64,000 bases of DNA from a phage, in the sequence record PQ374922.1; one strand, written 5' to 3'. The notes beneath the pieces are model-generated. The model saw only the letters and a list, made by a program, of their open reading frames with translations. It ran no database searches and had not been told where the DNA came from. The position numbers were made by a program, and so were the translations under genes. Shown here in pieces: positions 3,064-38,319 of this stretch (its first letter is position 1; each line of letters opens with the position of its first letter).

Positions 3064-3074
3064 CTAAATACCCC
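3064..3074 (+). promoter_or_regulatory. Late-promoter-like motif CTAAATACCCC
   Basis: Recurring box about 30 nt upstream of late-gene ATGs; here followed by complementary TATGGGGTA near the RBS. Confidence 0.6.
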
Positions 3075-3103
3075 ATATTGGACATCCTTTATGGGGTATT
3101 ATC

Positions 3104-6100
3104 ATGATTTCTCAATTCAATCAACCACGCGGCTCCACTTCCATAGAAGTTAACAAACAATCTATCGCTCGAAATTTCGGTGTCAAAGAAGACGAAGTCG
3201 TTTATTTCACTGCTGGTATTGATCTCAGTGGATTTAAAGTAATTTATGATGAGTCTACCCAACGGGCCTATTCTCTTCCTTCAGGTATTGTTTCAGGAAC
3301 GACTGCGATAAGTCTGAACGGACAAGCCATCCTCACTCATTCCGCTGGTTCTGTTGACCTCGGAGAATTAGCCGTATCCCGTGAGGAATATGTTACATTG
3401 CCTGGTTCATTTGATACAGGTGTAACTGTTAATTGTAAGAATGAATTAGTTGTCTTTACCGAGGGCAAGTACCGCTGGGATGGTGAATTACCTAAAGAAG
3501 TTCCTGCTGGTTCGACTCCTGAATCGTCTGGCGGCATTGGTGATGGGAAATGGGTCGGTGTTGGGGATGTGGCACTGCGTGGACAGATTTCAGACCCCGA
3601 GGGTGCAACAAAATATCCTGAACTACAAATGGCTCGCTGGCGTGATAATGGCGATCCGCGTGGATGGGGTGTTAAAGGTGATGCTGTACATGATGATACA
3701 GCAGCATTAACGAGCGTATTAAACGACACACCGGTTGGACAAAAGATTAATGGCAATGGGAAGACATATAAGGTCACATCCCTGCCTGACATTAGTAGAT
3801 TCGTCAATACTCGTTTTGTATATGAACGTATTCCTGGTCAGCCGCTTTATTATGCCTCTGAAGAATTTGTTCAGGGTGAGCTGTTCAAAATAACGGACAC
3901 CCCTTATTACAATGCGTGGCCACAAGATAAAGCGTTCGTTTACGACGATGTTATTTACTGTCCGTTCATGGCTAGTGATAGACATGGGGTTAGCAGGCTG
4001 CATGTATCCTGGGTTCGTTCAGGGGATGACGGACAGACCTGGACAACCCCGGAGTGGTTAACCGACCTACATCCTGACTATCCGACAGTTAACTACCACT
4101 GCATGAGTATGGGGGTGATGCGTAATCGTCTCTTTGCGATGATTGAGACCCGTACATTGGCATCTAACGCACTGGTAACCTGTGAGTTGTGGGATCGCCC
4201 CATGTCCCGTAACTACCATCCGACAGGCGGTATCACTAAAGCCGCCAACCAGCCTGTGGCTGTAATTACTATCCCTGAACACGGTCTTTTTGCTGGGGAT
4301 TTTGTTAACTTCTCAAACTCTGGGGTGACTGGAGTTTCAGGGAATATGACTGTAACTTCAGTTATTGACCGCAACACTTTCACAGTTACCACGCCAAATC
4401 AACAGGCGTTTGACCAAAATAATTCTGCCAGCCGTTGGCATATGGGTACATCGTTCCATGAGTCGCCGTGGCGTAAAACCAGCCTTGGGTTAATCCCAAT
4501 GGTGACTGAAGTTCATAGTTTTACCGCCATCAATAATGATTCATTCATGATGGGGTATCACCAAGGTGATGTTGCTCCTCGTGAAGTTGGCATGTTGTAT
4601 TTCCCGGATGCGTTTAATAACCCGGGTTTATACCAAAAACGTCGTATTCCTGCTGATTATGAACCTGATGCGGCAGAGCCTTGCGTTAAATATTTTGATG
4701 GCGTTCTTTATGTCTTAACTCGTGGTACTCGTTCAGATCGTTTGGGGAGTTCGTTGCATCGTAGTCATGATTTGGGCATGACTTGGGAATCACTCAGATT
4801 TCCTAATAATGTTCACCACTCTACGTTGCCGTTCGCTAAAGTCGGTAATGAACTAATCATTTTCGCCACAGAGCGTGCTGATAACGAATGGGAAGCCAAT
4901 GTACCTGATCAACGATACTTTACTTCTTATCCACGAACGTTCTACACGCGAGTGAACCTAGACACCTGGAACCTGGATAATACTCAGTGGGTGAATATCA
5001 CTGACCAGATTTATCAGGGCGGTATTGTCAACTCTGGAGTCGGTGTTGGCTCAGTGGTTGTTAAGGATAGTTATATCTATTACATGTTCGGTGGGGAAGA
5101 CCATCTGAACCCCTGGACATATGGAGATAACTCAGCGAAAGACCCATTCAAATCAGATGGTCATCCCTCAGATTTGTATTGCTACAAAATGAAGATTGGC
5201 CCAGACAATCGTGTTTCCAGGGATTTCAGATATGGTGCTGTACCTGACAGAGCTGTTCCCGTGTTTTTTGATACGAATGGGGTTCGCACTGTCCCTGCGC
5301 CAATGGAATTTACAGGAGATTTGGGTTTAGGTCATGTGACCCTTAGGGCCAGCACCAGTAATAACATTCGCTCTGAAATGCTACTGGAAGGCGAGTATGG
5401 GTTTATTGGGAAATCTGTACCTACTAATAACCCAGCAGGACAGCGCACCATATTTTGCGGTGGAGAAGGAACCAGTTCTTCTACTGGTGCACAGATTACG
5501 CTTTACGGTGCGAATAACACAGCTTCTCGCAGGATAGTTTACAACGGAGCTGAGCACCTGTTCCAGACTGCTGATGTTAAGCCTTATAACGATAACGCTA
5601 TTGCTCTTGGTGGGCCCAGCAACCGTTTCACCACTGCATACCTCGGAAGCAACCCTATTGTTACTTCTAACGGAGAGAAGAAAACGGAGCCGGTAGTTTT
5701 TGATGATGCTTTCCTGGATGCCTGGGGTGACGTTCACTACATCATGTACCAGTGGTTAGATGCTGTTCAACTGAAAGGCAATGAAGCTCGTATTCACTTC
5801 GGGGTTATTGCTCAGCAAATTCGTGATGTATTCATTGCACATGGTCTGATGGACGAAAACAGTACGGATTGTCGTTATGCCGTTCTGTGCTATGACAAGT
5901 ATCCACGGATGACCGATATGGTATTTTCGCACAATGAAATCGTTGAACACACTGACGAGGAGGGTAATGTCACCACCACGGAAGAGCCTGTATTCACTGA
6001 GGTGGTTATTCACGAAGAGGGTGAGGAGTGGGGCGTGCGGCCTGACGGAATTTTCTTTGCTGAAGCTGCTTATCAGCGAAGAAAACTGGAAAGAATCGAA

Positions 6101-6130
6101 GCCAGACTTTCTGCTCTTGAACAGAAGTAA
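3104..6130 (+). CDS. Tailspike protein with sialidase-like beta-propeller (two Asp-box motifs) and C-terminal intramolecular chaperone-like domain
   Basis: 1008 aa; Asp-boxes SGDDGQTW (4019-4042) and SHDLGMTW (4763-4786); N-terminal anchor-like module; acidic C-terminal ~150 aa (about 5680-6130) resembling self-cleaving tail-fibre chaperone domains. Confidence 0.8.
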   Translation: MISQFNQPRGSTSIEVNKQSIARNFGVKEDEVVYFTAGIDLSGFKVIYDESTQRAYSLPSGIVSGTTAISLNGQAILTHSAGSVDLGELAVSREEYVTLPGSFDTGVTVNCKNELVVFTEGKYRWDGELPKEVPAGSTPESSGGIGDGKWVGVGDVALRGQISDPEGATKYPELQMARWRDNGDPRGWGVKGDAVHDDTAALTSVLNDTPVGQKINGNGKTYKVTSLPDISRFVNTRFVYERIPGQPLYYASEEFVQGELFKITDTPYYNAWPQDKAFVYDDVIYCPFMASDRHGVSRLHVSWVRSGDDGQTWTTPEWLTDLHPDYPTVNYHCMSMGVMRNRLFAMIETRTLASNALVTCELWDRPMSRNYHPTGGITKAANQPVAVITIPEHGLFAGDFVNFSNSGVTGVSGNMTVTSVIDRNTFTVTTPNQQAFDQNNSASRWHMGTSFHESPWRKTSLGLIPMVTEVHSFTAINNDSFMMGYHQGDVAPREVGMLYFPDAFNNPGLYQKRRIPADYEPDAAEPCVKYFDGVLYVLTRGTRSDRLGSSLHRSHDLGMTWESLRFPNNVHHSTLPFAKVGNELIIFATERADNEWEANVPDQRYFTSYPRTFYTRVNLDTWNLDNTQWVNITDQIYQGGIVNSGVGVGSVVVKDSYIYYMFGGEDHLNPWTYGDNSAKDPFKSDGHPSDLYCYKMKIGPDNRVSRDFRYGAVPDRAVPVFFDTNGVRTVPAPMEFTGDLGLGHVTLRASTSNNIRSEMLLEGEYGFIGKSVPTNNPAGQRTIFCGGEGTSSSTGAQITLYGANNTASRRIVYNGAEHLFQTADVKPYNDNAIALGGPSNRFTTAYLGSNPIVTSNGEKKTEPVVFDDAFLDAWGDVHYIMYQWLDAVQLKGNEARIHFGVIAQQIRDVFIAHGLMDENSTDCRYAVLCYDKYPRMTDMVFSHNEIVEHTDEEGNVTTTEEPVFTEVVIHEEGEEWGVRPDGIFFAEAAYQRRKLERIEARLSALEQK

Positions 6131-6135
6131 TAAAC

Positions 6136-6166
6136 AAAACCCCGCTTCGGCGGGGTTAGTTTTTAC
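6136..6166 (+). terminator. Rho-independent terminator (aaaccccgcttcggcggggtt + T-tract)
   Basis: 8-bp GC stem, UUCG loop, T-run; same hairpin sequence recurs near 24378 and 31115. Confidence 0.7.
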
Positions 6167-6172
6167 TTATTA

Positions 6173-6430
6173 ATAATACTTTTTATATAGAGTTTACTGT
6201 TTGCATTACCCTTACTGATACAGCAGTTAAGGTAATAGTCTGACCTGATATGTTGAACATACCTAACTGTATACCATCCACCATGAAAGGGTCTGCTGAA
6301 CCTAGTGTGTAAGTAGCTAAAACGTTATCCCTGTTGGCTATATCTACACCCTGAACTTTGGTACTGGCATCTGAACCTACTATTGTAGTTCCATTGGTTC
6401 TCCTTGTTATACCTTTGTTCATAAATTTAT
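6173..6430. repeat. Copy A of ~240-bp intergenic direct repeat
   Basis: About 85% identical to 11305-11525 by eye; carries an intact 79-codon minus-strand ORF. Confidence 0.6.
6183..6422 (-). CDS. Small hypothetical protein (79 aa) encoded inside the repeat element; possibly a relic
   Basis: Intact ORF in copy A only; no convincing RBS; second copy is frameshifted. Confidence 0.25.
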   Translation of the reverse strand: MNKGITRRTNGTTIVGSDASTKVQGVDIANRDNVLATYTLGSADPFMVDGIQLGMFNISGQTITLTAVSVRVMQTVNSI

Positions 6431-6439
6431 TAGTTCAGA

Positions 6440-6450
6440 CTAAATACCCC
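6440..6450 (+). promoter_or_regulatory. Late-promoter-like motif CTAAATACCCC
   Basis: Same box and downstream TATGGGGTA complement as at 3064; leader nearly identical to that of the 3104 gene. Confidence 0.6.
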
Positions 6451-6467
6451 ATATTAGCAAATCCTCT

Positions 6468-8912
6468 ATGGGGTATCTTCAAATGACCAGAAACGTCGAG
6501 AGCATCTTTGGAGCGGTCGTAACAGCTCCGCACCAGATTCCATACACTTACACAGCAACGGGCGGAGAGAAGTTTATCTCCCTCCCTTTCTACCCTGTCA
6601 CGGGTATAGTCACAATCAACGGTGGTATGCAAGTTCCGTTAGACAACTTTGAAATCGATGGAAATACGTTGAATCTCGGGTGTGCATTATCCAAAGGTGA
6701 CGTTGTGTTCTGTCTGTTTGATAAGATTCTGTCTCCAGAAGATTATAAAACCGGGATTCGAATCTATAAGTTTCAGGCTATAGGAGGTGAAACCGAGTTC
6801 ACTCCTGATTACACATCTTATGGAGTCCAATCTCTTTATATCGGTGGTGAGTACAAAACACCCGAAATTGAATATTCCTATGACAGCACGACAGGGAAAG
6901 TGACTTTACAAACTGCGCTGACTGCAGGCGTTTGGGTAGTCGCTGAAATGTCTGTTAAACAACCGAATATCAGTCCGTTGTTTGACCGAAGTATTCAAGA
7001 AATCGCCCGTTCAGCTAATGTAAAAGATTCTGAAGTAATTCTTAGTACTGACACTACGCAATTATTGAATGGTAAAAAGATTGTCTACTCTGTTAGTGAG
7101 CAGAAGTCATATGGTTTACCTGTATTACCAGCGAATGTATATATTCAGTCTGTTAATGCAGGTAAGTTAACATATTCCCCTGGCGAAATTGTTGTTGATC
7201 TACTTCCTGTACCATCTTCAGTAAGAGATGAGCTGACTGCATATAAAGCGGATTTAGCTAGTGATTCCGGTGCAAGTAAGATTGGTATTAAGATTTCTTT
7301 GCCTGGGACAATTTCTCGTACATTGCAGGAACGGGCAGAAGATAGTGTTAGTGTCAAAGATTTTGGTGCAGTGCCTAATCTTACAACAGATAGTACTTAC
7401 GCCATTCAAGCTGCAATTGATGCGACTCCGTCTGGAGGTACTTTAGGTTTCTATGGCGGACCCTATAGGTTTGGTACTGTTACCGTGGACAAACCTATTA
7501 CACTAGTTGGAGATGCAGACTTGCAGTTTGAGTGTATTCGTATCAAAACAAGTAAGTTTCATAGTTTCTTGACAGGGACACTTACTGCTGCGAGATATGA
7601 CAACGCATGTCGTGCATTTCAAATATTGGCCTATGAAGACGGTAGAGACTATGAGGACATCAAGGTACATGGTGCACGTTTCGAGGGTTTCTTCTATAAC
7701 ACAGACTTCCGAGGTCGCTCTTACGATGCGTCAGAAAGCGATCCTACTAACAGAGTAGTTCGTGACACCTCTATTATGGGCTGTACTTCAGTTCAGCCTA
7801 AAGATGGTAAAGATAGAGGCCACTTTCAACACGTAGGTGTGACCAATGCCAAGTGCATAGGTAACTCGACGTATGGTGGCAAGAATGCTACTTCTTATAA
7901 CTTCATTAATGGTAACGGCTCTTTGGTGGTTATTGGTAACTATGACCATGACAATGAATATGGATCCTTAGAGATTGAGAATAACCAGATAAGCTACGGT
8001 GTTGTTACTGGTAATATCTTCCATAAACAGCTATGGATAGATGATACTAGCAACATTAACGTAATAGGTAACACCTGCACGGATAGGATTTTCATTACTG
8101 CACAATCTAACAACTCTGAGAACGTATCAGTAGTAGGAAACAATGTACCTCGCATCTACGTCAGTAAGTTTGGTCAAAGCCCAACAGGTCGTCACCGTAA
8201 CTTGACTATACGTGGCAACCATATCACTGGCAAGGATGTTCCTAACTGTATATTCTTAGATGATTCTATTGATTCCGCTTCTATTGAGGGTAATGATTGT
8301 TATGGTGTGTCTGGTGTTAGAGGTATAGCCATTACTCGCCATTCCGGTGCTAACTATACGGTGCGTCATAATAACTTACATGGCACTAACTTACTCTTTA
8401 GTGGTTCAGGCGGCAAAGTTTATAGTTATGACAACTTTGATGTTGGGGTTGATGAATCCCCTGTTATAAACAGAACTGACGCAATGCACATTGACAACCT
8501 TCTTCGTGTAAATGAAGAATACCTTGATTTGCCAGGAAAGTACCTATACAAATCTAAGTATGCAGGAGAAATTGCACAAGGTGGGTCAGTTACTATTGAG
8601 TTACCTGTATCAACAAGTGGTACTTTGTCTTTCCGTGGTCTTAGTCTGTGGGTTCTTATCCGTAACGTTTCTACAGGAAACTTTTCTTCCTATCGTGTCG
8701 ATGGAAGGCATGCAGTATTTGGCTCCTCTGTTACTGTTAGCTTTGGTGATAAATATGGAGCAGTAGGAGTAAATACTGGCGATATTACTGTTAGTGATGA
8801 TTCCTCCACAGCTAATCTTATTCGTATCAAGGTAATCAATGGGCACGTAGATCAAACAATGCAAGTGACAGTCATACCAGAGGTAACGAGCAGACTTGGG
8901 ACTGAAGAGTGA
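6468..8912 (+). CDS. Tailspike protein, pectate-lyase-like beta-helix type (true start may be ATG at 6483)
   Basis: 814 aa; anchor module SEVILSTDTTQLLNGKKIVYSVSEQKSYGLPVLPANV; VKDFGAV..TDSTYAIQAAIDA beta-helix entry motif. Confidence 0.8.
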   Translation: MGYLQMTRNVESIFGAVVTAPHQIPYTYTATGGEKFISLPFYPVTGIVTINGGMQVPLDNFEIDGNTLNLGCALSKGDVVFCLFDKILSPEDYKTGIRIYKFQAIGGETEFTPDYTSYGVQSLYIGGEYKTPEIEYSYDSTTGKVTLQTALTAGVWVVAEMSVKQPNISPLFDRSIQEIARSANVKDSEVILSTDTTQLLNGKKIVYSVSEQKSYGLPVLPANVYIQSVNAGKLTYSPGEIVVDLLPVPSSVRDELTAYKADLASDSGASKIGIKISLPGTISRTLQERAEDSVSVKDFGAVPNLTTDSTYAIQAAIDATPSGGTLGFYGGPYRFGTVTVDKPITLVGDADLQFECIRIKTSKFHSFLTGTLTAARYDNACRAFQILAYEDGRDYEDIKVHGARFEGFFYNTDFRGRSYDASESDPTNRVVRDTSIMGCTSVQPKDGKDRGHFQHVGVTNAKCIGNSTYGGKNATSYNFINGNGSLVVIGNYDHDNEYGSLEIENNQISYGVVTGNIFHKQLWIDDTSNINVIGNTCTDRIFITAQSNNSENVSVVGNNVPRIYVSKFGQSPTGRHRNLTIRGNHITGKDVPNCIFLDDSIDSASIEGNDCYGVSGVRGIAITRHSGANYTVRHNNLHGTNLLFSGSGGKVYSYDNFDVGVDESPVINRTDAMHIDNLLRVNEEYLDLPGKYLYKSKYAGEIAQGGSVTIELPVSTSGTLSFRGLSLWVLIRNVSTGNFSSYRVDGRHAVFGSSVTVSFGDKYGAVGVNTGDITVSDDSSTANLIRIKVINGHVDQTMQVTVIPEVTSRLGTEE

Positions 8913-9061
8913 TGCCATTAATCAAGTCAGTTAAGCAAAGTGCTGTACGCCGGAACGCAGAAGAACTCATCAAGGAAGAGTGTGACCCTAAGCAGGCTTA
9001 CGCCATTGCTAAGGATGTACAACGTCGTGCAATGAAGAAACCTTCTGTATCTTCTGCGTAA
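8912..9061 (+). CDS. Small hypothetical ORF (49 aa) translationally coupled to the upstream tailspike gene
   Basis: ATG overlaps the upstream stop (TGATG); basic helical-looking product; below the ORF-track size cut-off. Confidence 0.2.
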   Translation: MPLIKSVKQSAVRRNAEELIKEECDPKQAYAIAKDVQRRAMKKPSVSSA

Positions 9062-9356
9062 GCAGGTTAATATCTTAGTGTACACAAGGGCAGACCTATG
9101 ATAGCTCACAGCACACCTATGAGTGCCGCTCTGGAGTCTATGACTTGTTCCCTGACTATCTAGGTTTGCTCTTAGTGTATTCCAAGTATTAATATGAAAG
9201 GTTGGTGTAACATTGTAGGAGGGAATGGATGGTTATTGTATCTAGTAAGAGGAAAAGTCTAGATAAGATAATGCATACTGGCCTACGCTACCGTGTACTT
9301 ACCTAGTTATAAGACCCCGCTGAAGCGAGGTCTTCTAGAAAAACAAAGAGGTTGCT

Positions 9357-11264
9357 ATGAACGAGATGTTCTCTCAAGGTGGTAAAGGCTCTACGGGTAT
9401 TCTTACCAATATACAAGCCATTGCTCGTGCATGTAACGTAGCAGAAGGTAAAGTTATTCTCAGTACGAATACTAATACATTGCTAGATGATAAGACTGTA
9501 CTCTTCGATCGTAATGCTAAGAAGATATGGACTTTACCTACTCTCCCCTCCGGGGCAACCATTGCTAATGTAAATGGTGACCAATTAACCTATAACCCAG
9601 GAGGTATTACCGTTAGTCTACTTCCTGCACCAAATGACATTGCTGTACGAGTTAATGAAGCCATTACAGCAGTATATGACGAACTGGCTTCTAACACTGG
9701 CTCTAGTAAGGTTGGTCACATTACCGGACGTGTTGGTGAAGTTGCTCGCACTGTACAGGCTGCATTAGGTGATTGGGTAAGTCTGAAGGACTTTGGTGCA
9801 GTAGGTGATGGGATTACCGATGACACTGATGCTATTCAGGCTATGGTTGCTTGGGTAAACTCCCGAGCCAAATACTCTGCACCCATTTCTGTTATCTTTC
9901 CTGCTGGTCATTATAAGTACACTACTGGTATAAACTTTACACGCCCTGTAGCAGTATATGGTTTTCAGTCAGCTACTCTGGACTACTCAGGTACAGGTGC
10001 AGCAATGTACTTAGGTGACCCAACTCCAGAAGATGCACCTACTGCTGATAACTTTTATCAGTCTGAATACACTATAGAGGGTCTGCGATTCACTGGTGGT
10101 GTGCAAGCAGGTTTCGGTATTTTCATTAAGTCCTTCGTATTCACACCTAGAATCAGATACTGCATCTTTATGGACTATGGTAACTCTGCAACCTATGACA
10201 TCTATTCTCAGTATGAGAACTGGGATGGAATCATTGAGTGTTGTGAGAAACATACCTACTTCAGTACAGTAGCAACTGGTAGTTTCATAGCTCTCCTTGG
10301 CAAGAAGACTGATGGTAGTGCCTATGATGGTGGTAACTCACGATTTACCATACGTGACTGCTCAATGGGTGCATACGATAACCAAGACTTAGGTTACTTT
10401 GCATATATCAACTCTACATTGTGCCGTGTAATCGGAGGTAACGCACACCACTGTACCGGAGGTATTCTCCTTGGACCAAATGCTCACGGTGCTATTATTG
10501 ATGGATACTACACAGAGGTGAGTACAGCTGTACGACCTTGGATGGTTTCAGTGCTTAGTGACAAGACTAATCCTGCAAACTACCTTTTCCCACAGAGTGT
10601 ACGAATCCGTAACTGTTACATCAACATGCATAGCGAGAAGATAGGGAATAACGGTCGCATCATCGGAATGATGGATGGTAACGTTAAGTTACGTGATTGG
10701 GTAGTAGAGGATATTGCTGTTAGTACATTTGCTAATGGGCAGGTTCTGATTGATATGAACAACCTTGATGAACAGGTTAATAACACCTTTGCGCGAATTA
10801 ATCCTGTATTCATCCCTTATAACTCAGGTGCGGGTGCTAAATTCACTGTTGTCAATAACCCACCATTATCACCAAATGCATGGACATCCTCTGATGTTAT
10901 AGAAGGTACATGGACCCCTTCTGTAGGTGGTAATGCCACTTACAACATTCAGAAGGGTAAGTACCGTAAGGAAGGTCGTAAGGTAACAGTAGAGTTTGAT
11001 ATTCATATCAATACTATTGGTACAGGAAATCAGTCAGCAATTTTAGGTCTGCCTTTTGCGTGTGGTGATTCCACAGGTACAGGTAGTGTAAGCTACTATG
11101 CTGAACTTGCCTTACCTGTTTATGGTTTGTATATCCGAGTAGATGCACTAAGCTCCGATATTACAATCTCTGCATCCACAGCCTCAGCAGCGGGTATCTC
11201 TGGTTCTGTTGCAGCACTGGGGAATAATTCACGAATCATGGGTACATTGGTTTACTTTGTATAA
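9357..11264 (+). CDS. Tailspike protein, pectate-lyase-like beta-helix type
   Basis: 635 aa; N-terminal anchor module KVILSTNTNTLLDDKTVLFDRNAKKIWTLPTLP..QLTYNPGGITVSLLPAP; LKDFGAVGDGITDDTDAIQAMVAW motif; RBS aaagagg. Confidence 0.75.
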   Translation: MNEMFSQGGKGSTGILTNIQAIARACNVAEGKVILSTNTNTLLDDKTVLFDRNAKKIWTLPTLPSGATIANVNGDQLTYNPGGITVSLLPAPNDIAVRVNEAITAVYDELASNTGSSKVGHITGRVGEVARTVQAALGDWVSLKDFGAVGDGITDDTDAIQAMVAWVNSRAKYSAPISVIFPAGHYKYTTGINFTRPVAVYGFQSATLDYSGTGAAMYLGDPTPEDAPTADNFYQSEYTIEGLRFTGGVQAGFGIFIKSFVFTPRIRYCIFMDYGNSATYDIYSQYENWDGIIECCEKHTYFSTVATGSFIALLGKKTDGSAYDGGNSRFTIRDCSMGAYDNQDLGYFAYINSTLCRVIGGNAHHCTGGILLGPNAHGAIIDGYYTEVSTAVRPWMVSVLSDKTNPANYLFPQSVRIRNCYINMHSEKIGNNGRIIGMMDGNVKLRDWVVEDIAVSTFANGQVLIDMNNLDEQVNNTFARINPVFIPYNSGAGAKFTVVNNPPLSPNAWTSSDVIEGTWTPSVGGNATYNIQKGKYRKEGRKVTVEFDIHINTIGTGNQSAILGLPFACGDSTGTGSVSYYAELALPVYGLYIRVDALSSDITISASTASAAGISGSVAALGNNSRIMGTLVYFV

Positions 11265-11280: not shown

Positions 11281-11310
11281 AAGCCCCCAATTAAGGGGGC
11301 TTTTCTTATA
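11281..11310 (+). terminator. Rho-independent terminator (aagcccccaattaagggggctttt)
   Basis: GC-rich stem plus T-tract after stop at 11264. Confidence 0.65.
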
Positions 11311-11525
11311 TAGAGTTTACCGTTTGCATTACCCTAATTGATACTGCTGTCAGGGTGATTACTTGCCCAGATATATTAAACATACCTAGTTGAATACCAT
11401 CCACCATGAAAAGGGTCAGTTGAACCAAGCGTGTAAGTAGCTAATACATTATCCCTGTTAGCAATGTCCGTTTTATACTAGCGTCTGAACCTACTACTGT
11501 AGTTCCATTGGTTCATCCCATTCTC
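11305..11525. repeat. Copy B of ~240-bp intergenic direct repeat (degenerate; internal ORF disrupted)
   Basis: Alignable by eye to 6173-6430; extra A in the homopolymer breaks the ORF found in copy A. Confidence 0.55.
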
Positions 11526-11635: not shown

Positions 11636-11646
11636 CTAAATATCTC
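11636..11646 (+). promoter_or_regulatory. Late-promoter-like motif variant CTAAATATCTC
   Basis: About 30 nt upstream of ATG 11677. Confidence 0.45.
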
Positions 11647-11676
11647 TATAATGGCACCTATCGATGGAGCATCAAA

Positions 11677-17879: not shown

Positions 17880-17906
17880 AAAGGCGGGATTACCCGCCCT
17901 TCTTTT
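17880..17906. terminator. Hairpin terminator shared by convergent genes (aaggcgggattacccgccctt)
   Basis: GC stem-loop between the plus gene ending 17877 and the minus gene ending 17905. Confidence 0.6.
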
Positions 17907-18146: not shown

Positions 18147-18157
18147 CTAAATACCTT
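18147..18157 (+). promoter_or_regulatory. Late-promoter-like motif CTAAATACCTT
   Basis: About 20 nt upstream of ATG 18177; followed by GAGGGTAT complement. Confidence 0.5.
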
Positions 18158-18176
18158 CAAAATTGAGGGTATCGAT

Positions 18177-18827
18177 ATGGCCACTTCTAAATATTTCAAC
18201 GCCACCAATCACCAAGGCACACAGAAGCTGATTGAAGATTTGGTACAGGAAATGATTGAGTTGCGCGGGATAGACATCAAGTATATACCCCGTTCCATCG
18301 TTGAAAAATTTCCTATCACTAACGATGCTAACCACAGATTCGACCAGGCGTTCGACATCGAAGCGTACATGCAGGATTATCAGGGCTTCAACACCCAGAT
18401 GTGGGAGAAGTTTGGGGGTATCCAATTGCAAGACGAAGTGACGTTCTCTATCTCGCGCCGCCGATTTGCCGAGGTGATAGGCAACGGTGTTGGGTTTGAA
18501 CAACAACCTCAGGAAGGTGACCTGATCTATCTACCACTGGCAAACAAGATCTTCAAGGTCAACAACCCGAACAACGATGAAGACTTCATGCAATTTGGCA
18601 AATGGTATACGTTCTCTCTGCCGTGTACGTTGTTCCAGTACGGCAACGAAAACTTCGATACGGGCGTTCCGGAGATCGACGATATCGACAAACGTCTGTC
18701 CATCTTGGACGAAGAGAACGAACCGGACGTGTACAAGGATTCTTCTCTGCAGACCGACAATGCTTTGGCGGATGTGCTTGAGAAGGGGCTTGCAGTAGAC
18801 AAGATGAAGATCGACTTTGGAGAATAA
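18177..18827 (+). CDS. Neck protein, gp14-like (by position)
   Basis: 216 aa; RBS gaggg; lies between gp13-like and gp15-like genes as in T4. Confidence 0.55.
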   Translation: MATSKYFNATNHQGTQKLIEDLVQEMIELRGIDIKYIPRSIVEKFPITNDANHRFDQAFDIEAYMQDYQGFNTQMWEKFGGIQLQDEVTFSISRRRFAEVIGNGVGFEQQPQEGDLIYLPLANKIFKVNNPNNDEDFMQFGKWYTFSLPCTLFQYGNENFDTGVPEIDDIDKRLSILDEENEPDVYKDSSLQTDNALADVLEKGLAVDKMKIDFGE

Positions 18828-22429: not shown

Positions 22430-22440
22430 CTAAATATCTT
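22430..22440 (+). promoter_or_regulatory. Late-promoter-like motif variant CTAAATATCTT
   Basis: About 40 nt upstream of the sheath ATG. Confidence 0.45.
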
Positions 22441-22478
22441 TCAAATTGAGCGAAACTCTACAGAGAAGGAATAAGATT

Positions 22479-24375: not shown

Positions 24376-24406
24376 AATAAACCCCGCTTCGGCGGGGTTT
24401 TCATTT
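24376..24406. terminator. Bidirectional Rho-independent terminator (aaaccccgcttcggcggggttt)
   Basis: Sits between convergent sheath (+) and GIY-YIG (-) genes; same hairpin sequence as near 6138 and 31115. Confidence 0.7.
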
Positions 24407-25195
24407 CCTCTGTATTGACCACCCAGAAGTATTTGTCCTCTTGGTAGAAGACTTTCTGTATGGTGCTGGGATGGGATTCGGCTTTCTCCCTGCGAGAGCC
24501 ATATTAAAGGTCTCTGAACAAAGTTCCCTTTCCTTGCAAAACTTCAACAGATTCTTAATTTCATATTTCTCTCCATCAGGAGATATCAATATAAATTCTC
24601 GACCTAAGCCAGCATTGACTTTATTTTGAAAAGAAGGGTCAGATCTCAATTTATCCATCGCTTTCTTTAAATTTTTCTTCTTTTCAGGGTCTTTGAAAAC
24701 TTCCTTCAACAACTGCGACTGGGATTTCTTCTTTTCTTCTGTCCAAACCGCTTGTTGAGATGCTGACATCTTCAACCGACTTTCTTCTTTATGAACTGCC
24801 CCGTATTGTTTCGCCACGAATAAAACGCCCCAACCCTCATCGTCAACTGGTTTCATACCGACATATTTTCTGGTGTTAATATCAAAGGCAGCCGCCATAC
24901 CAGATATATCGATTTGTCCTCCTTTGCTGATGTTCATGCCACCCTGACTAATATGGGATTTATGGAGTTCAATGTAATAGATTTCCCTCTCGTTTAAATA
25001 CCCAACGGGACACTCTTCCAATATTTCATAAGAGATGGCTTCTTCGCCGTATTTTCTTATGCAATTGTAGAGATATGCTTTGTTGCCCCTTCGCGCTTCT
25101 TGGATATGTTCCCTGAAGCGTTGTTGAAAGCCGTTCCTTGTTTGCCCGATGTAGGTCTTGTTGTTGATTTTGAGCAGATAAATAATACCAAGCAT
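24401..25195 (-). CDS. GIY-YIG family homing endonuclease (free-standing)
   Basis: N-terminal GIIYLLKINNKTYIGQT..R..EH motif; AT-rich relative to neighbours; inserted antisense between sheath and tube genes. Confidence 0.85.
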   Translation of the reverse strand: MLGIIYLLKINNKTYIGQTRNGFQQRFREHIQEARRGNKAYLYNCIRKYGEEAISYEILEECPVGYLNEREIYYIELHKSHISQGGMNISKGGQIDISGMAAAFDINTRKYVGMKPVDDEGWGVLFVAKQYGAVHKEESRLKMSASQQAVWTEEKKKSQSQLLKEVFKDPEKKKNLKKAMDKLRSDPSFQNKVNAGLGREFILISPDGEKYEIKNLLKFCKERELCSETFNMALAGRKPNPIPAPYRKSSTKRTNTSGWSIQRK

Positions 25196-25237: not shown

Positions 25238-25248
25238 CTAAATACCGA
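25238..25248 (+). promoter_or_regulatory. Late-promoter-like motif CTAAATACCGA
   Basis: About 35 nt upstream of the tube ATG. Confidence 0.5.
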
Positions 25249-25282
25249 ATATGAAACCCATTCTCTATAGGAGAGTAATACA

Positions 25283-25836: not shown

Positions 25837-25847
25837 CTATATTCCCC
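25837..25847 (+). promoter_or_regulatory. Possible late-promoter variant CTATATTCCCC
   Basis: About 35 nt upstream of portal ATG; weaker match to the recurring box. Confidence 0.3.
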
Positions 25848-25882
25848 CTCACTAATTACAAGAAAATGTTGAGGACTTAATC

Positions 25883-28790: not shown

Positions 28791-28800
28791 CTAAATACTG
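28791..28800 (+). promoter_or_regulatory. Late-promoter-like motif CTAAATACTG
   Basis: About 25 nt upstream of scaffold ATG; preceded by palindrome gggctgaattcagccc. Confidence 0.45.
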
Positions 28801-29676: not shown

Positions 29677-29766
29677 TTTAGCAGCCACAGCCCTCGAAAG
29701 GGGGCTTGATTTTGAACTACTAAGTAATTTCAACTTAACTGAATATCAATGTAAGGAATGACCATC

Positions 29767-31089: not shown

Positions 31090-31112
31090 TCGAACAGTTG
31101 TCCTTAACCCTG

Positions 31113-31140
31113 ACAAACCCCGCTTCGGCGGGGTTTTTAT
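31113..31140 (+). terminator. Rho-independent terminator (aaaccccgcttcggcggggttttt)
   Basis: Strong hairpin plus T-tract after the capsid gene. Confidence 0.75.
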
Positions 31141-31193
31141 TTGTTCATATTATCGAACAGGTTATACTAGATACCATATGGAGGAGAATAATT

Positions 31194-32666
31194 ATGTATC
31201 AGGTAATCTGTAGTGTCTGCCATGAACAGTTCAAAGCATCCAGGAAAGATAAGAAATTTTGTTCAGATGCTTGCAAGACCTTCGCATCGAACACCCTAAA
31301 GAACCTCCCGGAAGGTTTCCTTGAAGCAGTGAATGAATTGTCTGACGAGGAATCATATCGCCAATTTTTCTACAAATATATGTTCACCAAGAACAACAAA
31401 TTGGATATCCAAAAATGCAAATCTGAACTGCTTATGAAGCACATCAATGTAGACCTTTTAGTGTTCGCCAATACCCACAACACCCTACAAGATTTGGCTT
31501 GTAAAGTCACAGCTTGGCTGTACAATAGAACCGTGAAAATATGCCCGGTGTGTTCCAAGGAAACCAACTTTTATATCAATAATAAAGATTACAGAACATA
31601 TTGTTCTGAAGAATGTTATCAGGTTTCTATGTGTAAAGGTGGGATTGGTCGGAAAGCCATAGAGAATTCGAATATATCCAAATACGGAAGCTGCTCCACA
31701 CTACAATTACCTGGTGTGAGGGAGAAGGCGTTGGCAACGTTACAAGAACGTTATGGTGTTGACAACCCTATGAAAAATTCGAACATACTAAAACGTGCGT
31801 TGTTCAGCAATGGTTCTATCAGGAACAAGAAATCTTCTTATGAAAAGGAAATATCCGAGTTTCTCACCTCAATGGGAGTTGTAAACACTGTTTCTGATTA
31901 CAGTATATTATCCGGTAAACAACTGGATATCTATTGCCCTGAACACAAATTGGCGATTGAATTTAATGGCCTGTACTGGCATTCAGAAGTTTTTAAAGAG
32001 AAACATTATCACCTGGAAAAGACTGAAATATGTGAAACTCAGGGTATCCAGTTGATCCACATCTGGGAAGATGAATGGGTTGAGAAACAGGAAGTGGTAA
32101 AATCTCTTCTGAAAGCTAAACTTGGAATTAAAACGCCTGCGTCATATGCTCGCCAACACAAAGTCGTTTGGGGAAATATAAGCGGCTTGAGGGAGTTTTT
32201 AGACAACCACCACATACAAGGTTCCGTTTCTTCCACCCACCATTTGTCGTTAATTGACAAGAGTGGGGCCATACAAGCCGTGATGCTATTCACTAAAAGG
32301 AAAGATGGCCTGGAATTAGTCAGATTTGCCTCTAATGATTGCCACGGGGCATTCAGTAAACTTCTTTCACACTTCAGAAGAAAATTTACCGGCACCAAAA
32401 TCTATTCCTTTGGGGATAGGTGTGTTGTAAGCAGGTTGTCCAACATTTACCTATCCCACGGATTCGTAGAAGAGGAAGTACAGAAGCCAGACTACAAATA
32501 TCACAAGCCTGGCACATTTATGCGTGAGCACAAATTCGGTTTCAGAAAAGGTTCATTTGCTCGCATGGGGTATGACGTAGAAGGCAAAACAGAAAGCCAA
32601 TTAGCAACCGAAGCCGGGTTGGTCAGGATTTGGAATTGTGGACTGATCAAATATGTCTTGAACTAA
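31194..32666 (+). CDS. Zinc-ribbon protein with Vsr/DUF559-like endonuclease motif; putative homing-endonuclease-like selfish gene
   Basis: Two CxxC...CxxxC ribbons (CSVCHEQ..FCSDAC; CPVCSKE..YCSEEC); nuclease-like AIEFNGLYWHSE...IHIWEDEW; AT-rich; RBS ggaggag. Confidence 0.6.
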   Translation: MYQVICSVCHEQFKASRKDKKFCSDACKTFASNTLKNLPEGFLEAVNELSDEESYRQFFYKYMFTKNNKLDIQKCKSELLMKHINVDLLVFANTHNTLQDLACKVTAWLYNRTVKICPVCSKETNFYINNKDYRTYCSEECYQVSMCKGGIGRKAIENSNISKYGSCSTLQLPGVREKALATLQERYGVDNPMKNSNILKRALFSNGSIRNKKSSYEKEISEFLTSMGVVNTVSDYSILSGKQLDIYCPEHKLAIEFNGLYWHSEVFKEKHYHLEKTEICETQGIQLIHIWEDEWVEKQEVVKSLLKAKLGIKTPASYARQHKVVWGNISGLREFLDNHHIQGSVSSTHHLSLIDKSGAIQAVMLFTKRKDGLELVRFASNDCHGAFSKLLSHFRRKFTGTKIYSFGDRCVVSRLSNIYLSHGFVEEEVQKPDYKYHKPGTFMREHKFGFRKGSFARMGYDVEGKTESQLATEAGLVRIWNCGLIKYVLN

Positions 32667-32674: not shown

Positions 32675-32700
32675 TTCAATAACGGGGCGAAAGGTATCAT
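32675..32700 (+). promoter_or_regulatory. Candidate middle-type promoter: TTCAATAA box, 12-nt spacer, TATCAT
   Basis: Recurring TTCAATAA-N12-TAnnnT arrangement about 30 nt upstream of ATG 32730. Confidence 0.4.
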
Positions 32701-32930: not shown

Positions 32931-32935
32931 CAGTT

Positions 32936-33676: not shown

Positions 33677-33684
33677 GGTTAAAC

Positions 33685-34468: not shown

Positions 34469-34473
34469 GTTCT

Positions 34474-34896: not shown

Positions 34897-34937
34897 CATA
34901 TCATAAATAATTTGAGTATACACAGCGGAGATACATC

Positions 34938-35108
34938 ATGTTTGTCGTCATCAATCTGTTCTGTTACATCTTCACGGCGTACTTCTTGGGCGCGGTAGGG
35001 ATTGAGACCTACAATGACCTGAAGGATGGGGAATACGCCAACCGAATGGTTTATGTCAAGAAGTTTGTTCGTAAGTTCTGGTCCAACTTCGTTTACAAAC
35101 TACCATGA
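34938..35108 (+). CDS. Small hydrophobic protein (56 aa, one predicted TM helix)
   Basis: ATG preceded by ggag; below ORF-track cut-off; MFVVINLFCYIFTAYFLGAVG hydrophobic N-terminus. Confidence 0.35.
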   Translation: MFVVINLFCYIFTAYFLGAVGIETYNDLKDGEYANRMVYVKKFVRKFWSNFVYKLP

Positions 35109-35111
35109 TCC

Positions 35112-35122
35112 CTAAATACCCC
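35112..35122 (+). promoter_or_regulatory. Late-promoter-like motif CTAAATACCCC with complementary ATGGGGGTAT hairpin arm
   Basis: Exact box about 25 nt upstream of ATG 35147. Confidence 0.55.
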
Positions 35123-35146
35123 CATCATCCATGGGGGTATTTTCTT

Positions 35147-35875
35147 ATGAACACACAGATCTATGACGCCCTATCACAGGGCAACGCCTTTACCAATCCT
35201 CTCCCGTCCCTCAGCAGCGCCTCACAGGGGTTAATCACCAGTGGTAAGGCGACTACAGCGTCACTGGCTAACACCGGAAATGCGCAGATTCAGGAAGCGC
35301 TGACGGCAGGTGGGTTGACTACAGCCAAACTCAACGAATCTACAGCAATGTTCAACTCAGCCAACAACAGCATCACTACTTTGAACAACTATGGCGACCA
35401 GTCAGTGAACGAGGCATATTCCCGCATCGGTACATCTGTGTCGTATAAGTCCGCCCTGAAGTCTATAGGTCGAGAACCGAACAACTGTGATCTGATCAAT
35501 AATGCATTTGGGGTTATTCAGAACCTCGGCAAACAGTGGATCAACACCATGCAAAGTGTTCTCACAACTATCACAAACAAGATGAATGAGCTGGCTGAGT
35601 TGGTAGCTCAGGGTGTCAGTGCTGGTCTTGATGCTATTCGGGCACTGGCTGCTGAAGTTACTCAAGCCATCGACACTGCTGTCGCATCAGTAGCCTCTAT
35701 TGCTCAGGACATCACGAACGGTATTGCAGCAGAGTTAGCCCATATCCAAGACATGGTTGGTAAGTGTCTTAACTTCTCTTTTGCCAACGTGATCTCAGAG
35801 TGGGCGAAAGATATCTGCGCCGGAGGTGTCATCAACAGCATTGGTTCCGATAATCTGAAGAACGCGCTGAAGTAA
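35147..35875 (+). CDS. Ser/Thr/Asn/Ala-rich hypothetical late protein (243 aa), possibly virion-associated
   Basis: Late-promoter box directly upstream; low-complexity alpha-helical-looking sequence; start chosen downstream of the promoter box (ORF track ATG 35105 overlaps the box). Confidence 0.5.
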   Translation: MNTQIYDALSQGNAFTNPLPSLSSASQGLITSGKATTASLANTGNAQIQEALTAGGLTTAKLNESTAMFNSANNSITTLNNYGDQSVNEAYSRIGTSVSYKSALKSIGREPNNCDLINNAFGVIQNLGKQWINTMQSVLTTITNKMNELAELVAQGVSAGLDAIRALAAEVTQAIDTAVASVASIAQDITNGIAAELAHIQDMVGKCLNFSFANVISEWAKDICAGGVINSIGSDNLKNALK

Positions 35876-36283: not shown

Positions 36284-36554
36284 GTTCTCATCAAAGCAAC
36301 CTAAAGGTACGAGCTTCTGGAAGGGCTGGAACTCTTGCACGATGATGTCCAGCATACCCTTGTTACAAGTGGGAACGCTGGCCGACAACGTCACAGGTAC
36401 AGTGCGCACTTCTGGGTTCCAGAGTTCGGAAACAGAAATTATTGGCGTGACAAAGATGCGACAGCTCGTAAACAAGAGCATCGAGCATGCCAACAACAAT
36501 CTACTGATCCCGCGCATCAGGGTCACAAAATATCTCCACAGCAAAGGTGCTATT

Positions 36555-37067
36555 ATGTCCAACGTACAATTTAAGAACGAAAACCCTAATTTCGCGGCGT
36601 CCGATAAGTGGCGTCTGACTATCGGAGACCTTGTACTCCTAACCCGTAACATCCACGACTTCAGTATACCAGGGGTGTACTCCGAAGGCATCGATGGTCC
36701 GTCTCCTGGTGACGTGTTGGTTTCTATACCTTCAGAGCGTTTAACCTATGATCCCGTCGTATTTACTTTCGTTATAGACGAGGACTGGAAATCATGGTTA
36801 CAGATCCACCAATGGATTACCAGCAACGTCGGCAAGGATTTGCCTGTCAGCAAGGACATTACCATTGAATTGCTGGATAACCTCAACCGACCGATTGGCC
36901 TCACTCTCGTGCTGGAGGAAGCCCGCCCGACTGCTTTGGACAACGTACTGGTGGACGTAGACGCAGCTGTACCTCAGCTGGTGACGACAGTGACCTTCAA
37001 GTTCCAACAGCTGGTTCCACTATCTGGTGGGAAGGCGATTGATTCTAATCCGCGAAATGCGGTATAA
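36555..37067 (+). CDS. Tail-tube-fold paralogue (gp19-like), possibly a baseplate tube component such as gp48/gp54
   Basis: C-terminal ITIELLDNLNRPIGLTLVLEEARPTALDNVLVDVDAAVPQLVTTVTFKFQ aligns by eye with the tube protein at 25283; start chosen at ATG 36555. Confidence 0.6.
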   Translation: MSNVQFKNENPNFAASDKWRLTIGDLVLLTRNIHDFSIPGVYSEGIDGPSPGDVLVSIPSERLTYDPVVFTFVIDEDWKSWLQIHQWITSNVGKDLPVSKDITIELLDNLNRPIGLTLVLEEARPTALDNVLVDVDAAVPQLVTTVTFKFQQLVPLSGGKAIDSNPRNAV

Positions 37068-37097
37068 TTCTATGACATTGACAAGCTGGGATATTTT

Positions 37098-37550
37098 ATG
37101 AAAGAACAACTACAGACAATGGCTACCGAGGACATCATGAACGAACTGGAGCCGCTGATCACAGTGGACCCAGAAGACATGAACCTTGACCAGATCTCAC
37201 TGAAAATCGGGCGCTCTTGGATGGCTGTACAGCGGCATTATCTGCGCGAGGGGCGTTATCTTGAATTTCTCAACGGGCGCTTCCGCCAGATCGATCTCTA
37301 TCTGCGCCGCTACTATGCAGGGGAGTTACCCCCTAACATCTACGCAGAGCGCCCCCTGAAGGTTCGCCCCCTGAAGTCTGACCTAGATACATGGGTCAAA
37401 GCAGACGATGACTATGTGGAGTTGTCTGTTCTGTTACAAGAACAAAAAGCAAAAGTCAAGTTCATAGAGACTTGTTTGGATCGCCTGAACAAACTGGGAT
37501 ACGAAGTGAAAAATGCTATTGAGTGGAGAAAATATATTGATGGTGTATAA
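37098..37550 (+). CDS. uvsY: Recombination mediator, UvsY-like
   Basis: 150 aa; segment YYAGELPPNIYAERPLKVRPLKSDLDTWVKADDDYVELSVLLQE resembles the T4 UvsY core; lies two genes upstream of uvsW as in T4. Confidence 0.65.
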   Translation: MKEQLQTMATEDIMNELEPLITVDPEDMNLDQISLKIGRSWMAVQRHYLREGRYLEFLNGRFRQIDLYLRRYYAGELPPNIYAERPLKVRPLKSDLDTWVKADDDYVELSVLLQEQKAKVKFIETCLDRLNKLGYEVKNAIEWRKYIDGV

Positions 37551-37565
37551 CGAGGATCACACATA

Positions 37566-38312
37566 ATGGCATCCCTCCAAGATCTACGCAAGCTGAACGA
37601 CTTCGAAAACCGTCATTACACATTCCAGCAATACGAACTTCCTTACAAGGAACTGGAGTGTGTTACGACGGAGAATGGTCGTCATTACGTTTCACCGTCT
37701 GGTGTAAAACTGACATCCGTCACGACTATGCTGGGACGCACTGGAGATCATGAATGGCTTGAGTCTTGGAGGAAGAAGCTGGGCGCAGAGGCCGCTGACC
37801 TTGAGACCATGCGCTGTGCTGACCGAGGGGAGAAGCTGCACCTTGCGTGTGAACTGTATCTAAAGAACCGCCCAATGAAAGAAGTGTTGGAAGCGGCTGG
37901 CGAATACATGTTCATGTTCAAGCAGCTGTTCCCTTACCTGAACAAGATGACAAAGATCTATGCTCAGGAGATCCCATTATATAGCGAGGTGCTTGGTCTT
38001 GCAGGTCGTGTAGACCTTATCGGGGTTTATGAGGGTAAACCTGCTGTCATCGACTTCAAGACATCGAACACCATGAAGACGCGGGGCATGATCGAGGATT
38101 ACAGTATCCAGCTATGCTTATATTCGGTCATGTTCCAGCAGATGTTCGGCGTCAAGATCACCCGCCTCATCAACGTGATCGCCAACGAGTCTTCCCCTCT
38201 ACCAACCGTCATTGAGTTCAACCGTGATGACATTCTGACAAAGATGTTTGAGCGTGTTCGTCTGTATCATCGCATGGATAAAGAACAAAACGGAGTCTGG
38301 CCGGATCACTAA
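37566..38312 (+). CDS. PD-(D/E)xK superfamily nuclease (exonuclease-like)
   Basis: Motifs GRVDLIGVY (Asp) and PAVIDFKTS (D-x-K) in beta-strand context. Confidence 0.55.
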   Translation: MASLQDLRKLNDFENRHYTFQQYELPYKELECVTTENGRHYVSPSGVKLTSVTTMLGRTGDHEWLESWRKKLGAEAADLETMRCADRGEKLHLACELYLKNRPMKEVLEAAGEYMFMFKQLFPYLNKMTKIYAQEIPLYSEVLGLAGRVDLIGVYEGKPAVIDFKTSNTMKTRGMIEDYSIQLCLYSVMFQQMFGVKITRLINVIANESSPLPTVIEFNRDDILTKMFERVRLYHRMDKEQNGVWPDH

Positions 38313-38319
38313 ATACCCC
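38309..38319 (+). promoter_or_regulatory. Late-promoter-like motif CTAAATACCCC upstream of uvsW
   Basis: Exact box 22 nt upstream of ATG 38341, overlapping the upstream stop codon. Confidence 0.55.

Follow-up and report, generated by a model that had tools for sequence, protein, structure and literature searches.

We examined a 64,000-nucleotide (nt) stretch of phage DNA (sequence record PQ374922.1; hereafter the window) in which the heptamer CTAAATA recurs upstream of late-type genes, and found that at four of these sites the box and the nucleotides behind it form one arm of a strong hairpin whose other arm covers the Shine-Dalgarno sequence of the following gene. The box has the features of a T4-type late promoter, and the hairpins probably serve a translational gating of the kind known from phage T4, in which a hairpin embedded in the promoter would close the ribosome-binding site (RBS) in RNA arriving from upstream and leave it open in RNA initiated at the late promoter itself.

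By its sequence, the window (48.5% G+C) belongs to an Ackermannviridae (Vi1-like) phage. In a megablast search with its first 25 kilobases (kb), the closest relative was Escherichia phage YX22 (98% identity over the common part), with more remote matches in Agtrevirus, Limestonevirus, Kuttervirus and Taipeivirus. Genes were named from synteny with annotated relatives and from PHROG scans.

CTAAATA boxes precede late genes

The heptamer occurs ten times on the plus strand of the window and never on the minus strand, compared with ~4.7 copies expected for both strands together, and all nine positions listed in the original prediction, which had been made from the sequence alone, carry it. At nine of the ten boxes the distance from box start to ATG is 30-49 nt, which bears out the location upstream of all nine genes in the original prediction (given there as 20-40 nt); the tenth copy, at 18187, lies within the gp14 coding sequence. 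Only ~3.5% of plus-strand positions fall 25-60 nt 5' of a listed start. The genes behind the nine boxes encode tailspikes 2 and 3, VrlC, gp14, gp18, gp19, gp22, a virion structural protein and UvsW, and the claim that late-type genes, including uvsW and the gene at 35147, are preceded by the box held insofar as it stands before virion genes and uvsW. The ten copies are as follows:

3064..3070, plus strand: putative late-promoter box of tailspike 2 (ATG 3104), positions -12 to -6; predicted +1 near 3076
6440..6446, plus strand: putative late-promoter box of tailspike 3 (likely ATG 6483); copy of the 3064 cassette
11636..11642, plus strand: putative late-promoter box of the VrlC-like protein (ATG 11677)
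18147..18153, plus strand: putative late-promoter box of neck protein gp14 (ATG 18177)
18187..18193, plus strand: CTAAATA inside the gp14 coding sequence; probably no promoter
22430..22436, plus strand: putative late-promoter box of sheath protein gp18 (ATG 22479)
25238..25244, plus strand: putative late-promoter box of tube protein gp19 (ATG 25283)
28791..28797, plus strand: putative late-promoter box of scaffold protein gp22 (ATG 28825)
35112..35118, plus strand: putative late-promoter box of the virion structural protein (ATG 35147); it lies where a small-gene cluster with early-type promoters ends
38309..38315, plus strand: putative late-promoter box of uvsW (ATG 38341)

The exonuclease gene upstream of uvsW (37566-38312) terminates at the TAA contained in the uvsW box (38310-38312), so this promoter would overlap coding sequence. 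The sites at 3064 and 6440, before tailspikes 2 and 3, share ~55 nt of near-identical upstream sequence (3024-3078 and 6400-6454; CTTGTTATACCTTTGTTCATAAATTT.ATTAGTTCAGACTAAATACCCCATATT) and were therefore treated as one duplicated tailspike cassette rather than as two independent cases. This ~55-nt sequence has the appearance of a portable promoter-hairpin module at cassette boundaries.

When the search was extended to the whole YX22 genome, 14 of the 18 CTAAATA copies lay at most 90 nt upstream of an annotated start on the same strand, despite 91% of the genome being coding. Endolysin, baseplate and head-closure genes are also among the box-preceded genes of YX22. At two places in that genome (18354/18383 and 38220/38247) there are boxes on both strands, which together make an inverted repeat and each of which drives or faces a divergent gene. 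The face-to-face boxes at 18354-18383 belong to head-closure versus baseplate tail-tube cap genes, and each face-to-face box lies within the predicted 5' untranslated region of the opposite gene.

The box has the properties of a T4-type late promoter

T4 late promoters are described (PMC2988020 and PMC1524935) as TATAAATA at -13 to -6 without a -35 element, read by gp55 together with gp33 and the gp45 clamp. For the Aeromonas phage Aeh1, the late promoter is given as "CTAAATA, beginning at -12" (Nolan 2006, PMC1524935). In an alignment of 16 sites, TAAATA (-11 to -6) was invariant, position -12 was C in 12 sites and T or A in the others, and 11 sites had A at exactly the +1 predicted from T4. 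No -35-type conservation was observed in these 16 sites, with an information content of at most 0.12 bit at -16 to -13 and no visible conservation at -30 to -14. Positions -5 to -2 were rich in C and T, with C at -4 in 13 of the 16 sites, and thus did not resemble the AT-rich segment downstream of the T4 box. However, that segment is AT-rich on average, as a statistical tendency rather than a strict criterion (PMC2988020), and the first late promoter of T4 gene e is followed by CCTTC.

The form of the box also varies between genera. The orthologous site of the structural gene has TATAAATA in Kuttervirus and TTAAATA in Taipeivirus, endolysin leaders carry TTAAATA in all genomes compared, and the orthologous gp19 site has CTAATTA in Kuttervirus and Taipeivirus. 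The resemblance to the T4 late promoter that had been pointed out earlier can be made specific: within the T4 late consensus, the box corresponds to positions -12 to -6. Further candidate boxes were identified in the window:

25852..25858, plus strand: variant box CTAATTA (ACTAATTA), 31 nt 5' of the portal gp20 ATG (25883)
29720..29726, plus strand: variant box CTAAGTA 5' of the major capsid gene (ATG 29758), kept in 5 of 5 genera compared
42737..42743, plus strand: variant box CTAAGTA 37 nt 5' of regA (ATG 42774); CTAAATA at the orthologous position in YX22
62684..62691, minus strand: canonical TATAAATA 43 nt 5' of a minus-strand gene (phrog_3833)

The CTAATTA at 25852 is the sole copy on the plus strand of the window, and its context is identical in YX22. 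A weaker variant had been proposed at 25837 (CTATATTCCCC), which we considered as the portal promoter and rejected. The GGGGGAT adjoining it on the 5' side pairs with ATTCCCCC, which makes the variant resemble one portion of a stem-loop behind the tail-tube gene, and the one-mismatch box ACTAATTA follows 15 nt further on. The earlier position was thus probably misassigned and is probably no promoter, and judging from the sequence the box at 25852 is probably the better portal promoter candidate. No hairpins were found at the variant-box sites (portal, capsid, regA, the 34938 gene and the minus-strand site at 62691).

The genes for the T4-type late transcription machinery are present:

63233..64000, plus strand, truncated at the window end: gp55-like late sigma (phrog_234, E 3e-52), the presumed reader of the box
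40578..41246, plus strand: gp45-like sliding clamp, T4-type late transcription activator (phrog_223 and synteny), with the clamp loader next
YX22 40602-40847: gp33-like co-activator (phrog_254)

The gp55-like sigma is identical to the YX22 protein in 255 of 255 residues and is named gp55 throughout the annotations of the family; a tblastn search with it returned its own family followed by Vibrio phages, cyanophages and others at 25-40% identity, with Aeh1 and T4 absent among the matches listed. Kutter et al. (2011) reported gp55, gp33 and gp45 homologues in CBA120, ViI and AG3 and described the late recognition sequence as "not yet identified" (PMC3184105), and in the LIMEstone1 paper resemblance to T4 served to predict 33 late promoters. 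The similar motif that the original prediction had mentioned for Vi1-like phages does exist in print: 'CTAAATAcCcc' is, verbatim, one of two Viunalikevirus regulatory motifs quoted in the EspM4VN paper (PMC7283392), and its attribution to Adriaenssens et al. 2012 (Arch Virol) follows that quotation. Four of the five motif positions listed for EspM4VN lie just 5' of the first tailspike, the third tailspike, the structural protein and the first uvsW open reading frame (ORF) in the annotated genome. Taken together, every indirect line of evidence available supports (A)CTAAATA as the -10-type element (-13/-12 to -6) of T4-type late promoters, with start sites placed by analogy with T4 spacing.

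Since the box always lies within the leader region of the gene behind it, it could instead be no promoter but a signal in the RNA, for example a site of processing or protein binding in leaders whose transcription begins elsewhere. We find this hardly credible, because the sequence of the box and its distance to the gene match the Aeh1/T4 late promoter class, TATAAATA takes its place at orthologous sites, A is enriched at the predicted +1 and the late sigma and its partners are present. In addition, the box keeps its constant spacing at sites that have no RNA structure.

Nucleotides of the box pair with the Shine-Dalgarno region

The original prediction had further described a conserved C-rich 3' part of the motif. 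The full 11-mer CTAAATACCCC occurs exactly at 3064, 6440, 35112 and 38309 and, when up to one mismatch is allowed, gives 5 matches compared with 0.55 expected (0 of 100 shuffles reached 5). However, CCCC follows the box at only four of the nine sites, the rest having CCTT, TCTC, TCTT, CCGA and CTGA, and this part of the motif is better read as a pyrimidine-rich spacer at -5 to -1 that doubles as an anti-Shine-Dalgarno arm. We folded each box-to-ATG segment and calculated the energy of the duplex that box positions 3-17 would form with the 20 nt immediately 5' of the ATG. Strong hairpins were obtained at four sites:

3067..3077, plus strand: 5' arm AATACCCCATA of tailspike 2, comprising part of the box and the spacer, anti-Shine-Dalgarno; hairpin free energy -19.5 kcal/mol
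3090..3100, plus strand: 3' arm TATGGGGTATT over the tailspike 2 Shine-Dalgarno, ending 3 nt before the ATG
6444..6453, plus strand: 5' arm ATACCCCATA of tailspike 3
6467..6476, plus strand: 3' arm TATGGGGTAT over the tailspike 3 Shine-Dalgarno
18151..18159, plus strand: 5' arm ATACCTTCA of gp14
18164..18172, plus strand: 3' arm TGAGGGTAT over the gp14 Shine-Dalgarno, with one G.U wobble
35114..35125, plus strand: 5' arm AAATACCCCCAT of the structural protein; free energy about -17 kcal/mol
35131..35142, plus strand: 3' arm ATGGGGGTATTT over the structural-protein Shine-Dalgarno

These helices are 10-11 base pairs (bp) long at 3064/6440, 9 bp at 18147 and 12 bp at 35112, and all are highly specific, with duplex energies of -11.5 to -18.4 kcal/mol compared with about -4 for the RBS regions of 34 other genes or for shuffled arms. 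Averaged over the boxes of the window, the duplex between box arm and own RBS reached -9.5 kcal/mol, in contrast with -4.1 for other RBS regions and -4.0 for shuffled arms (Wilcoxon p 0.002 and 0.001, respectively).

The predicted pairing between box and Shine-Dalgarno region therefore stood at 3064/6440, 18147 and 35112, and only there without reservation. It was weak and marginal at 11636 (VrlC; CTCTAT/ATGGAG, 11644-11651 with 11661-11669) and 22430 (gp18; TCTTTC at 22437-22442 with GAAGGA at 22465-22470), and at 28791 (gp22) a marginal small helix, CTGAA/TTCAG, adjoins the Shine-Dalgarno without covering it. The weak, interrupted pairing at 38309 (uvsW; 38311-38320 with 38328-38337) was indistinguishable from that of shuffled arms, and at 25238 (gp19) box-RBS pairing was absent in both the fold and the duplex test. 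In the gp19 leader (25263-25279), the Shine-Dalgarno GGAGAG is paired in a local hairpin, CATTCTCT ATA GGAGAGTA (-5.4 kcal/mol), which lies wholly downstream of the predicted late start and so would persist in late messenger RNA, unlike the box-arm hairpins. Searched against Rfam at gathering thresholds, the window matched no family at any position.

The hairpin also bears on the start codon of tailspike 3. The longest ORF begins at ATG 6468, inside the 3' arm TATGGGGTAT, and an in-frame ATG at 6483, 7 nt past the arm, is the more likely start.

The hairpins are conserved and covary in related phages

YX22 has 26 genes with TAAATA 12-60 nt upstream, and in nine of them the helix outscored 95% or more of the 159 control RBS regions. 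These nine encode tailspikes 1-3, gp14, the structural protein, a baseplate wedge protein (weaker), a 55-amino-acid protein, the endolysin and a RuvC-like Holliday-junction resolvase (named from PHROG). The helices of these nine genes are 9-15 bp long. The endolysin and resolvase genes fall outside the window, and in YX22 both lie inside same-strand clusters of replication-type genes.

Orthologous leaders collected from IMG/VR and five annotated genomes yielded 28 distinct hairpin versions for 8 genes; the search for loci related to the structural protein gave 2 loci only, and its orthologues came mainly from the annotated genomes. In all 28 versions the 5' arm begins at -11 to -6, inside the box, and the 3' arms hold GGGG, GGAGG, GAGGG or GAGGA, with 1-8 nt left between their end and the ATG. 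When the versions are aligned on the box, which sets the register, 3-5 kinds of standard pair occur at every position from -5 to +6. The arms thus differ between sites, and they covary. Between genera, the resolvase leader changes from AAATAGCCCATA/TATGGGCTATTT to AAATACCCATA/TATGGGTATTT, one G:C pair being lost from both arms, and a C-G pair in the leader of the 55-amino-acid gene becomes U-A. In Kuttervirus, CCCCCAT/ATGGGGG of the structural-gene leader is replaced by the compensated CCCCCAA/TTGGGGG. In endolysin leaders, CCTCT and CCTTC both pair with an invariant GGAGG by means of G.U wobbles. The helices are therefore specific, conserved and covarying, as expected of structures under selection. 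For gp14, LIMEstone1 and some Kutterviruses have a second, unrelated upstream region with the same box and a different leader (...CTAAATAtatttaaatcttgaggaaaatattATG), which fits the insertion between two neck genes reported in the LIMEstone1 paper.

These observations bear on whether the C-rich tail does no more than extend the promoter, for example as a discriminator-like spacer that contacts sigma or aids promoter opening, with the complementarity to the Shine-Dalgarno being incidental. The C at -4 and the pyrimidines at -5 to -2 occur also at sites without a long helix, and CCCC is found at uvsW and at YX22 140508, where there is little or no helix. Nevertheless, we regard this explanation as unlikely. 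The helices go well past the pyrimidine/purine core, taking in AAATA/UAUUU at one end and another 3-8 pairs at the other. They outscore arms shuffled with composition preserved as well as the RBS regions of other genes, and the arms vary by site and covary, with compensatory changes between genera. Moreover, the AT-rich segment after the T4 box (PMC2988020) indicates that C-richness is no general requirement of this promoter class.

The stability of the two strands allowed a role in RNA to be compared with a role in DNA. Owing to G.U wobbles, the sense hairpin is 2-4.5 kcal/mol more stable than the antisense hairpin in five of eight gene groups. Although the test gave p ~1e-6 over 55 sequences, these come from only 8 gene groups, which we therefore scored as five in favour, two neutral and one contrary, and the preference for the sense strand is suggestive of an RNA-level role. 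An inverted repeat acting in DNA, whether as a cruciform, as a protein-binding palindrome or as a by-product of face-to-face promoters, would accord with the both-strand boxes in inverted repeat at YX22 18354/18383 and 38220/38247. It is very improbable for the strong sites, where the reverse complement of the 3' arm is no box (e.g. AAAATACCCCC) and no gene follows on the opposite strand; beyond the box, the arms have no common sequence that a protein could read, and the wobbles favour sense RNA in most gene groups.

A promoter-embedded hairpin could gate translation

In the mechanism that we propose, host RNA polymerase with the gp55-like sigma, the gp33-like co-activator and the gp45 clamp would read (A)CTAAATA and begin transcription ~6 nt after the box, usually at A. 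At about one-third of sites, the 5-nt pyrimidine- or C-rich spacer and the AAATA of the box would form the 5' arm of a 9-15 bp helix, with the Shine-Dalgarno and the UAUU(U) that follows it as the 3' arm, ending 1-8 nt before the AUG. RNA entering from upstream, be it early, middle or read-through from a neighbouring gene, would contain both arms and have its RBS sequestered. The first nucleotide of RNA initiated at the late promoter would coincide with the end of the 5' arm or lie past it, given that T4 spacing puts the late start there; such a transcript could not form the helix, and its RBS would be open. A gene would thus be translated only from RNA that starts at its own late promoter. 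Consistent with this, the predicted probability that the segment from Shine-Dalgarno to AUG is unpaired was 0.37 in read-through RNA versus 0.51 in late RNA, with control values of 0.46 and 0.52 (p ~0.02).

T4 offers a close parallel. McPheeters et al. (1986) reportedly placed the late promoter of T4 gene e within the 5' strand of a helix that sequesters the RBS. The gene e leader (NC_000866) reads TATAAATACCTTCTA[TAAATACT]TAGGAGGTATTATG, the box and CCTTC forming the 5' arm against the Shine-Dalgarno, and because the leaders described here share this architecture, T4-type gating by a promoter-embedded hairpin is the best explanation, and in our view a likely one. The mechanism is established for T4 genes e, soc, 49 and I-TevI (Uzan & Miller 2010, PMC3014915).

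Several observations weigh against this interpretation. The difference in accessibility is modest when averaged over all ten sites, and the absence of the 5' arm from late RNA is predicted from T4-like spacing only. We found nothing relevant in the searchable literature on transcriptomes or start sites of Ackermannviridae. Canonical terminators and late genes precede three of the four strong sites in the window, namely those of tailspikes 2 and 3 and of gp14, such that early read-through is no obvious threat there. C is present at -4 in six of nine sites without a long helix, with pyrimidines at -5 to -2 there too, so part of the C-richness may serve the promoter itself. The sense advantage is absent in two of the eight gene groups and reversed for tailspike 3. 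Finally, the alternative gp14 leader of LIMEstone1 and some Kutterviruses keeps the box almost without a helix, indicating that the hairpin is dispensable for gp14.

Among the strong sites of the window, only 35112 stands directly behind genes with early-type promoters, and gene order permits read-through there as well as at the YX22 endolysin and YX22 resolvase genes. For the tailspikes and gp14, insulation from polycistronic late RNA is possible but speculative.

The arrangement could also be one of transcriptional insulation, the hairpins being intrinsic terminators, attenuators or 3'-end stabilisers in which the next promoter is embedded. Some sites have a U-rich run behind the 3' arm (UAUUUUCUU at 35112 and in the endolysin leader, UAUUUUU in that of the Kuttervirus resolvase), and the AAAUA/UAUUU stem base resembles that of bidirectional terminators. 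At other sites, however, the tails are poor U-tracts (UAUUAUC, UAUCGAU, UAUCUUCAA), a terminator consensus scan called none of the box hairpins, and separate terminators with a GC stem and T-run lie upstream at 3007-3024, 6138-6157 and 17883-17898. In addition, the 3' arm always lies over the Shine-Dalgarno, 1-8 nt before the AUG, a placement needed for occluding the RBS and not for termination. We therefore consider terminators a decidedly improbable explanation.

Returning to translational gating, we tentatively extend it to the 'cCcc' tail as a whole, which may, at somewhat less than an even chance, be primarily an anti-Shine-Dalgarno arm belonging to a regulon of ~9 hairpins per genome (endolysin, resolvase, three tailspikes, neck protein and others), each gating translation. 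If this is true, the output of the tailspike and gp14 genes would be insulated from polycistronic read-through rather than simply delayed, a use broader than the few cases in T4.

Gene map and other features of the window

The gene order of the window, with start positions unless a range is given, is as follows:

1-11264: four tailspikes
from 11677: VrlC-like structural protein
17119 and 18177: neck proteins gp13 and gp14, then gp15 and terminase
22479: sheath gp18
25283: tube gp19
25883: portal gp20, then prohead proteins
28825: scaffold gp22
29758: capsid gp23
32.7-35.1 kb: small-gene block
35147: virion structural protein, then gp3, uvsY and exonuclease
38341: uvsW
42774: regA, with metabolic and replication genes from there to 64 kb

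Two homing endonuclease genes are present, one of the GIY-YIG type between the sheath and tube genes (24401-25195, minus strand) and one of the HNH type (phrog_3339) directly after the capsid gene (31098-32666, plus strand), the latter beginning within a terminator-like hairpin at 31115-31136. Both are missing or different in some relatives.

A segment of ~220 nt is present at 6180-6403 and 11303-11518 (81% identical), in the tailspike 2/3 and tailspike 4/VrlC intergenic regions. Its first copy has an intact 79-amino-acid ORF on the minus strand (6183-6422) and its second copy looks degenerate; the repeat may be a remnant of tailspike-cassette exchange. The 728-nt intergenic region 5' of the gp45 clamp gene contains 2.6 copies of an 18-nt AT-rich unit, TTAATAAAGTTATTATCT, at 40400-40446. 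This iteron-like repeat could be a replication origin or a regulatory site.

Early-type promoters resembling TTCAAT-N14-TATAAT are found at 32675, 32936, 45437 and 49007 (plus strand), with weaker copies at 59679 and 63047. This is the second published Viunalikevirus motif, and it precedes small genes and metabolic genes; several copies are followed by a short GC hairpin, e.g. TTCAATAACGGGG.

Relation to known systems and implications

The box itself is already known, and is confirmed here as an Aeh1-type variant of the T4 late promoter. Similarly, the gating mechanism is known from T4. Neither complementarity to the RBS nor a function of the C-rich tail is mentioned in five papers on this family (PMC7283392, PMC3296691, PMC3184105, PMC11721090 and PMC10892097), a scope that does not extend to the 2012 genus paper.

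A hairpin layer would explain the variable C-rich tail of the published motif and predict which late genes are translationally gated, endolysin and junction resolvase among them, as in T4. Its elements are directly testable, with arms of 11-15 bp for which natural compensatory variants exist. It also corrects some likely start codons, such as that of tailspike 3, and could matter when tailspike cassettes are swapped to alter host range, since a gene moved without its box-hairpin module, or with a mismatched RBS, could change in expression.

In Aeh1 the identical 7-mer stands before T4-type late genes, and its inferred distance from the start site is also the same. Aeh1 differs in belonging to another phage lineage, its motif was likewise identified in silico, and the available part of that paper mentions neither a C-rich tail nor RBS pairing (PMC1524935). 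The Viunalikevirus motif is the same motif in the same phage group, for which PMC7283392 gives positions only.

The likeness to T4 gene e extends to the hairpin, in that the late -10 box and the next nucleotides form the 5' arm while the Shine-Dalgarno and UAUU form the 3' arm before the AUG. There are differences, as the present phages are Ackermannviridae and not Straboviridae, have C rather than A at -12 and carry hairpins at ~9 genes in each genome, some of which (the tailspikes and a neck protein) are surrounded by late genes in any case. Their resolvase is RuvC-like and is no homologue of endonuclease VII, and the hairpins here are known from sequence alone. Nonetheless, the gated endolysin and Holliday-junction resolvase are functional counterparts of T4 e and 49. 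The two systems share a core, AAUACCUUCUA/UAGGAGGUAUU in T4 e and AAAUACCUUCGCA/UGCGGAGGUAUUU in the endolysin leaders of Ackermannviridae phages, and the core of the endolysin leader AAATACCTTCGCA...TGCGGAGGTATTT is almost identical to that of the T4 e leader. This similarity may be convergent, since a box combined with an anti-Shine-Dalgarno arm leaves little sequence freedom. That the functions predicted to be gated here are ones gated in T4 points to a recurrent solution for dangerous late genes that lie downstream of early transcription.

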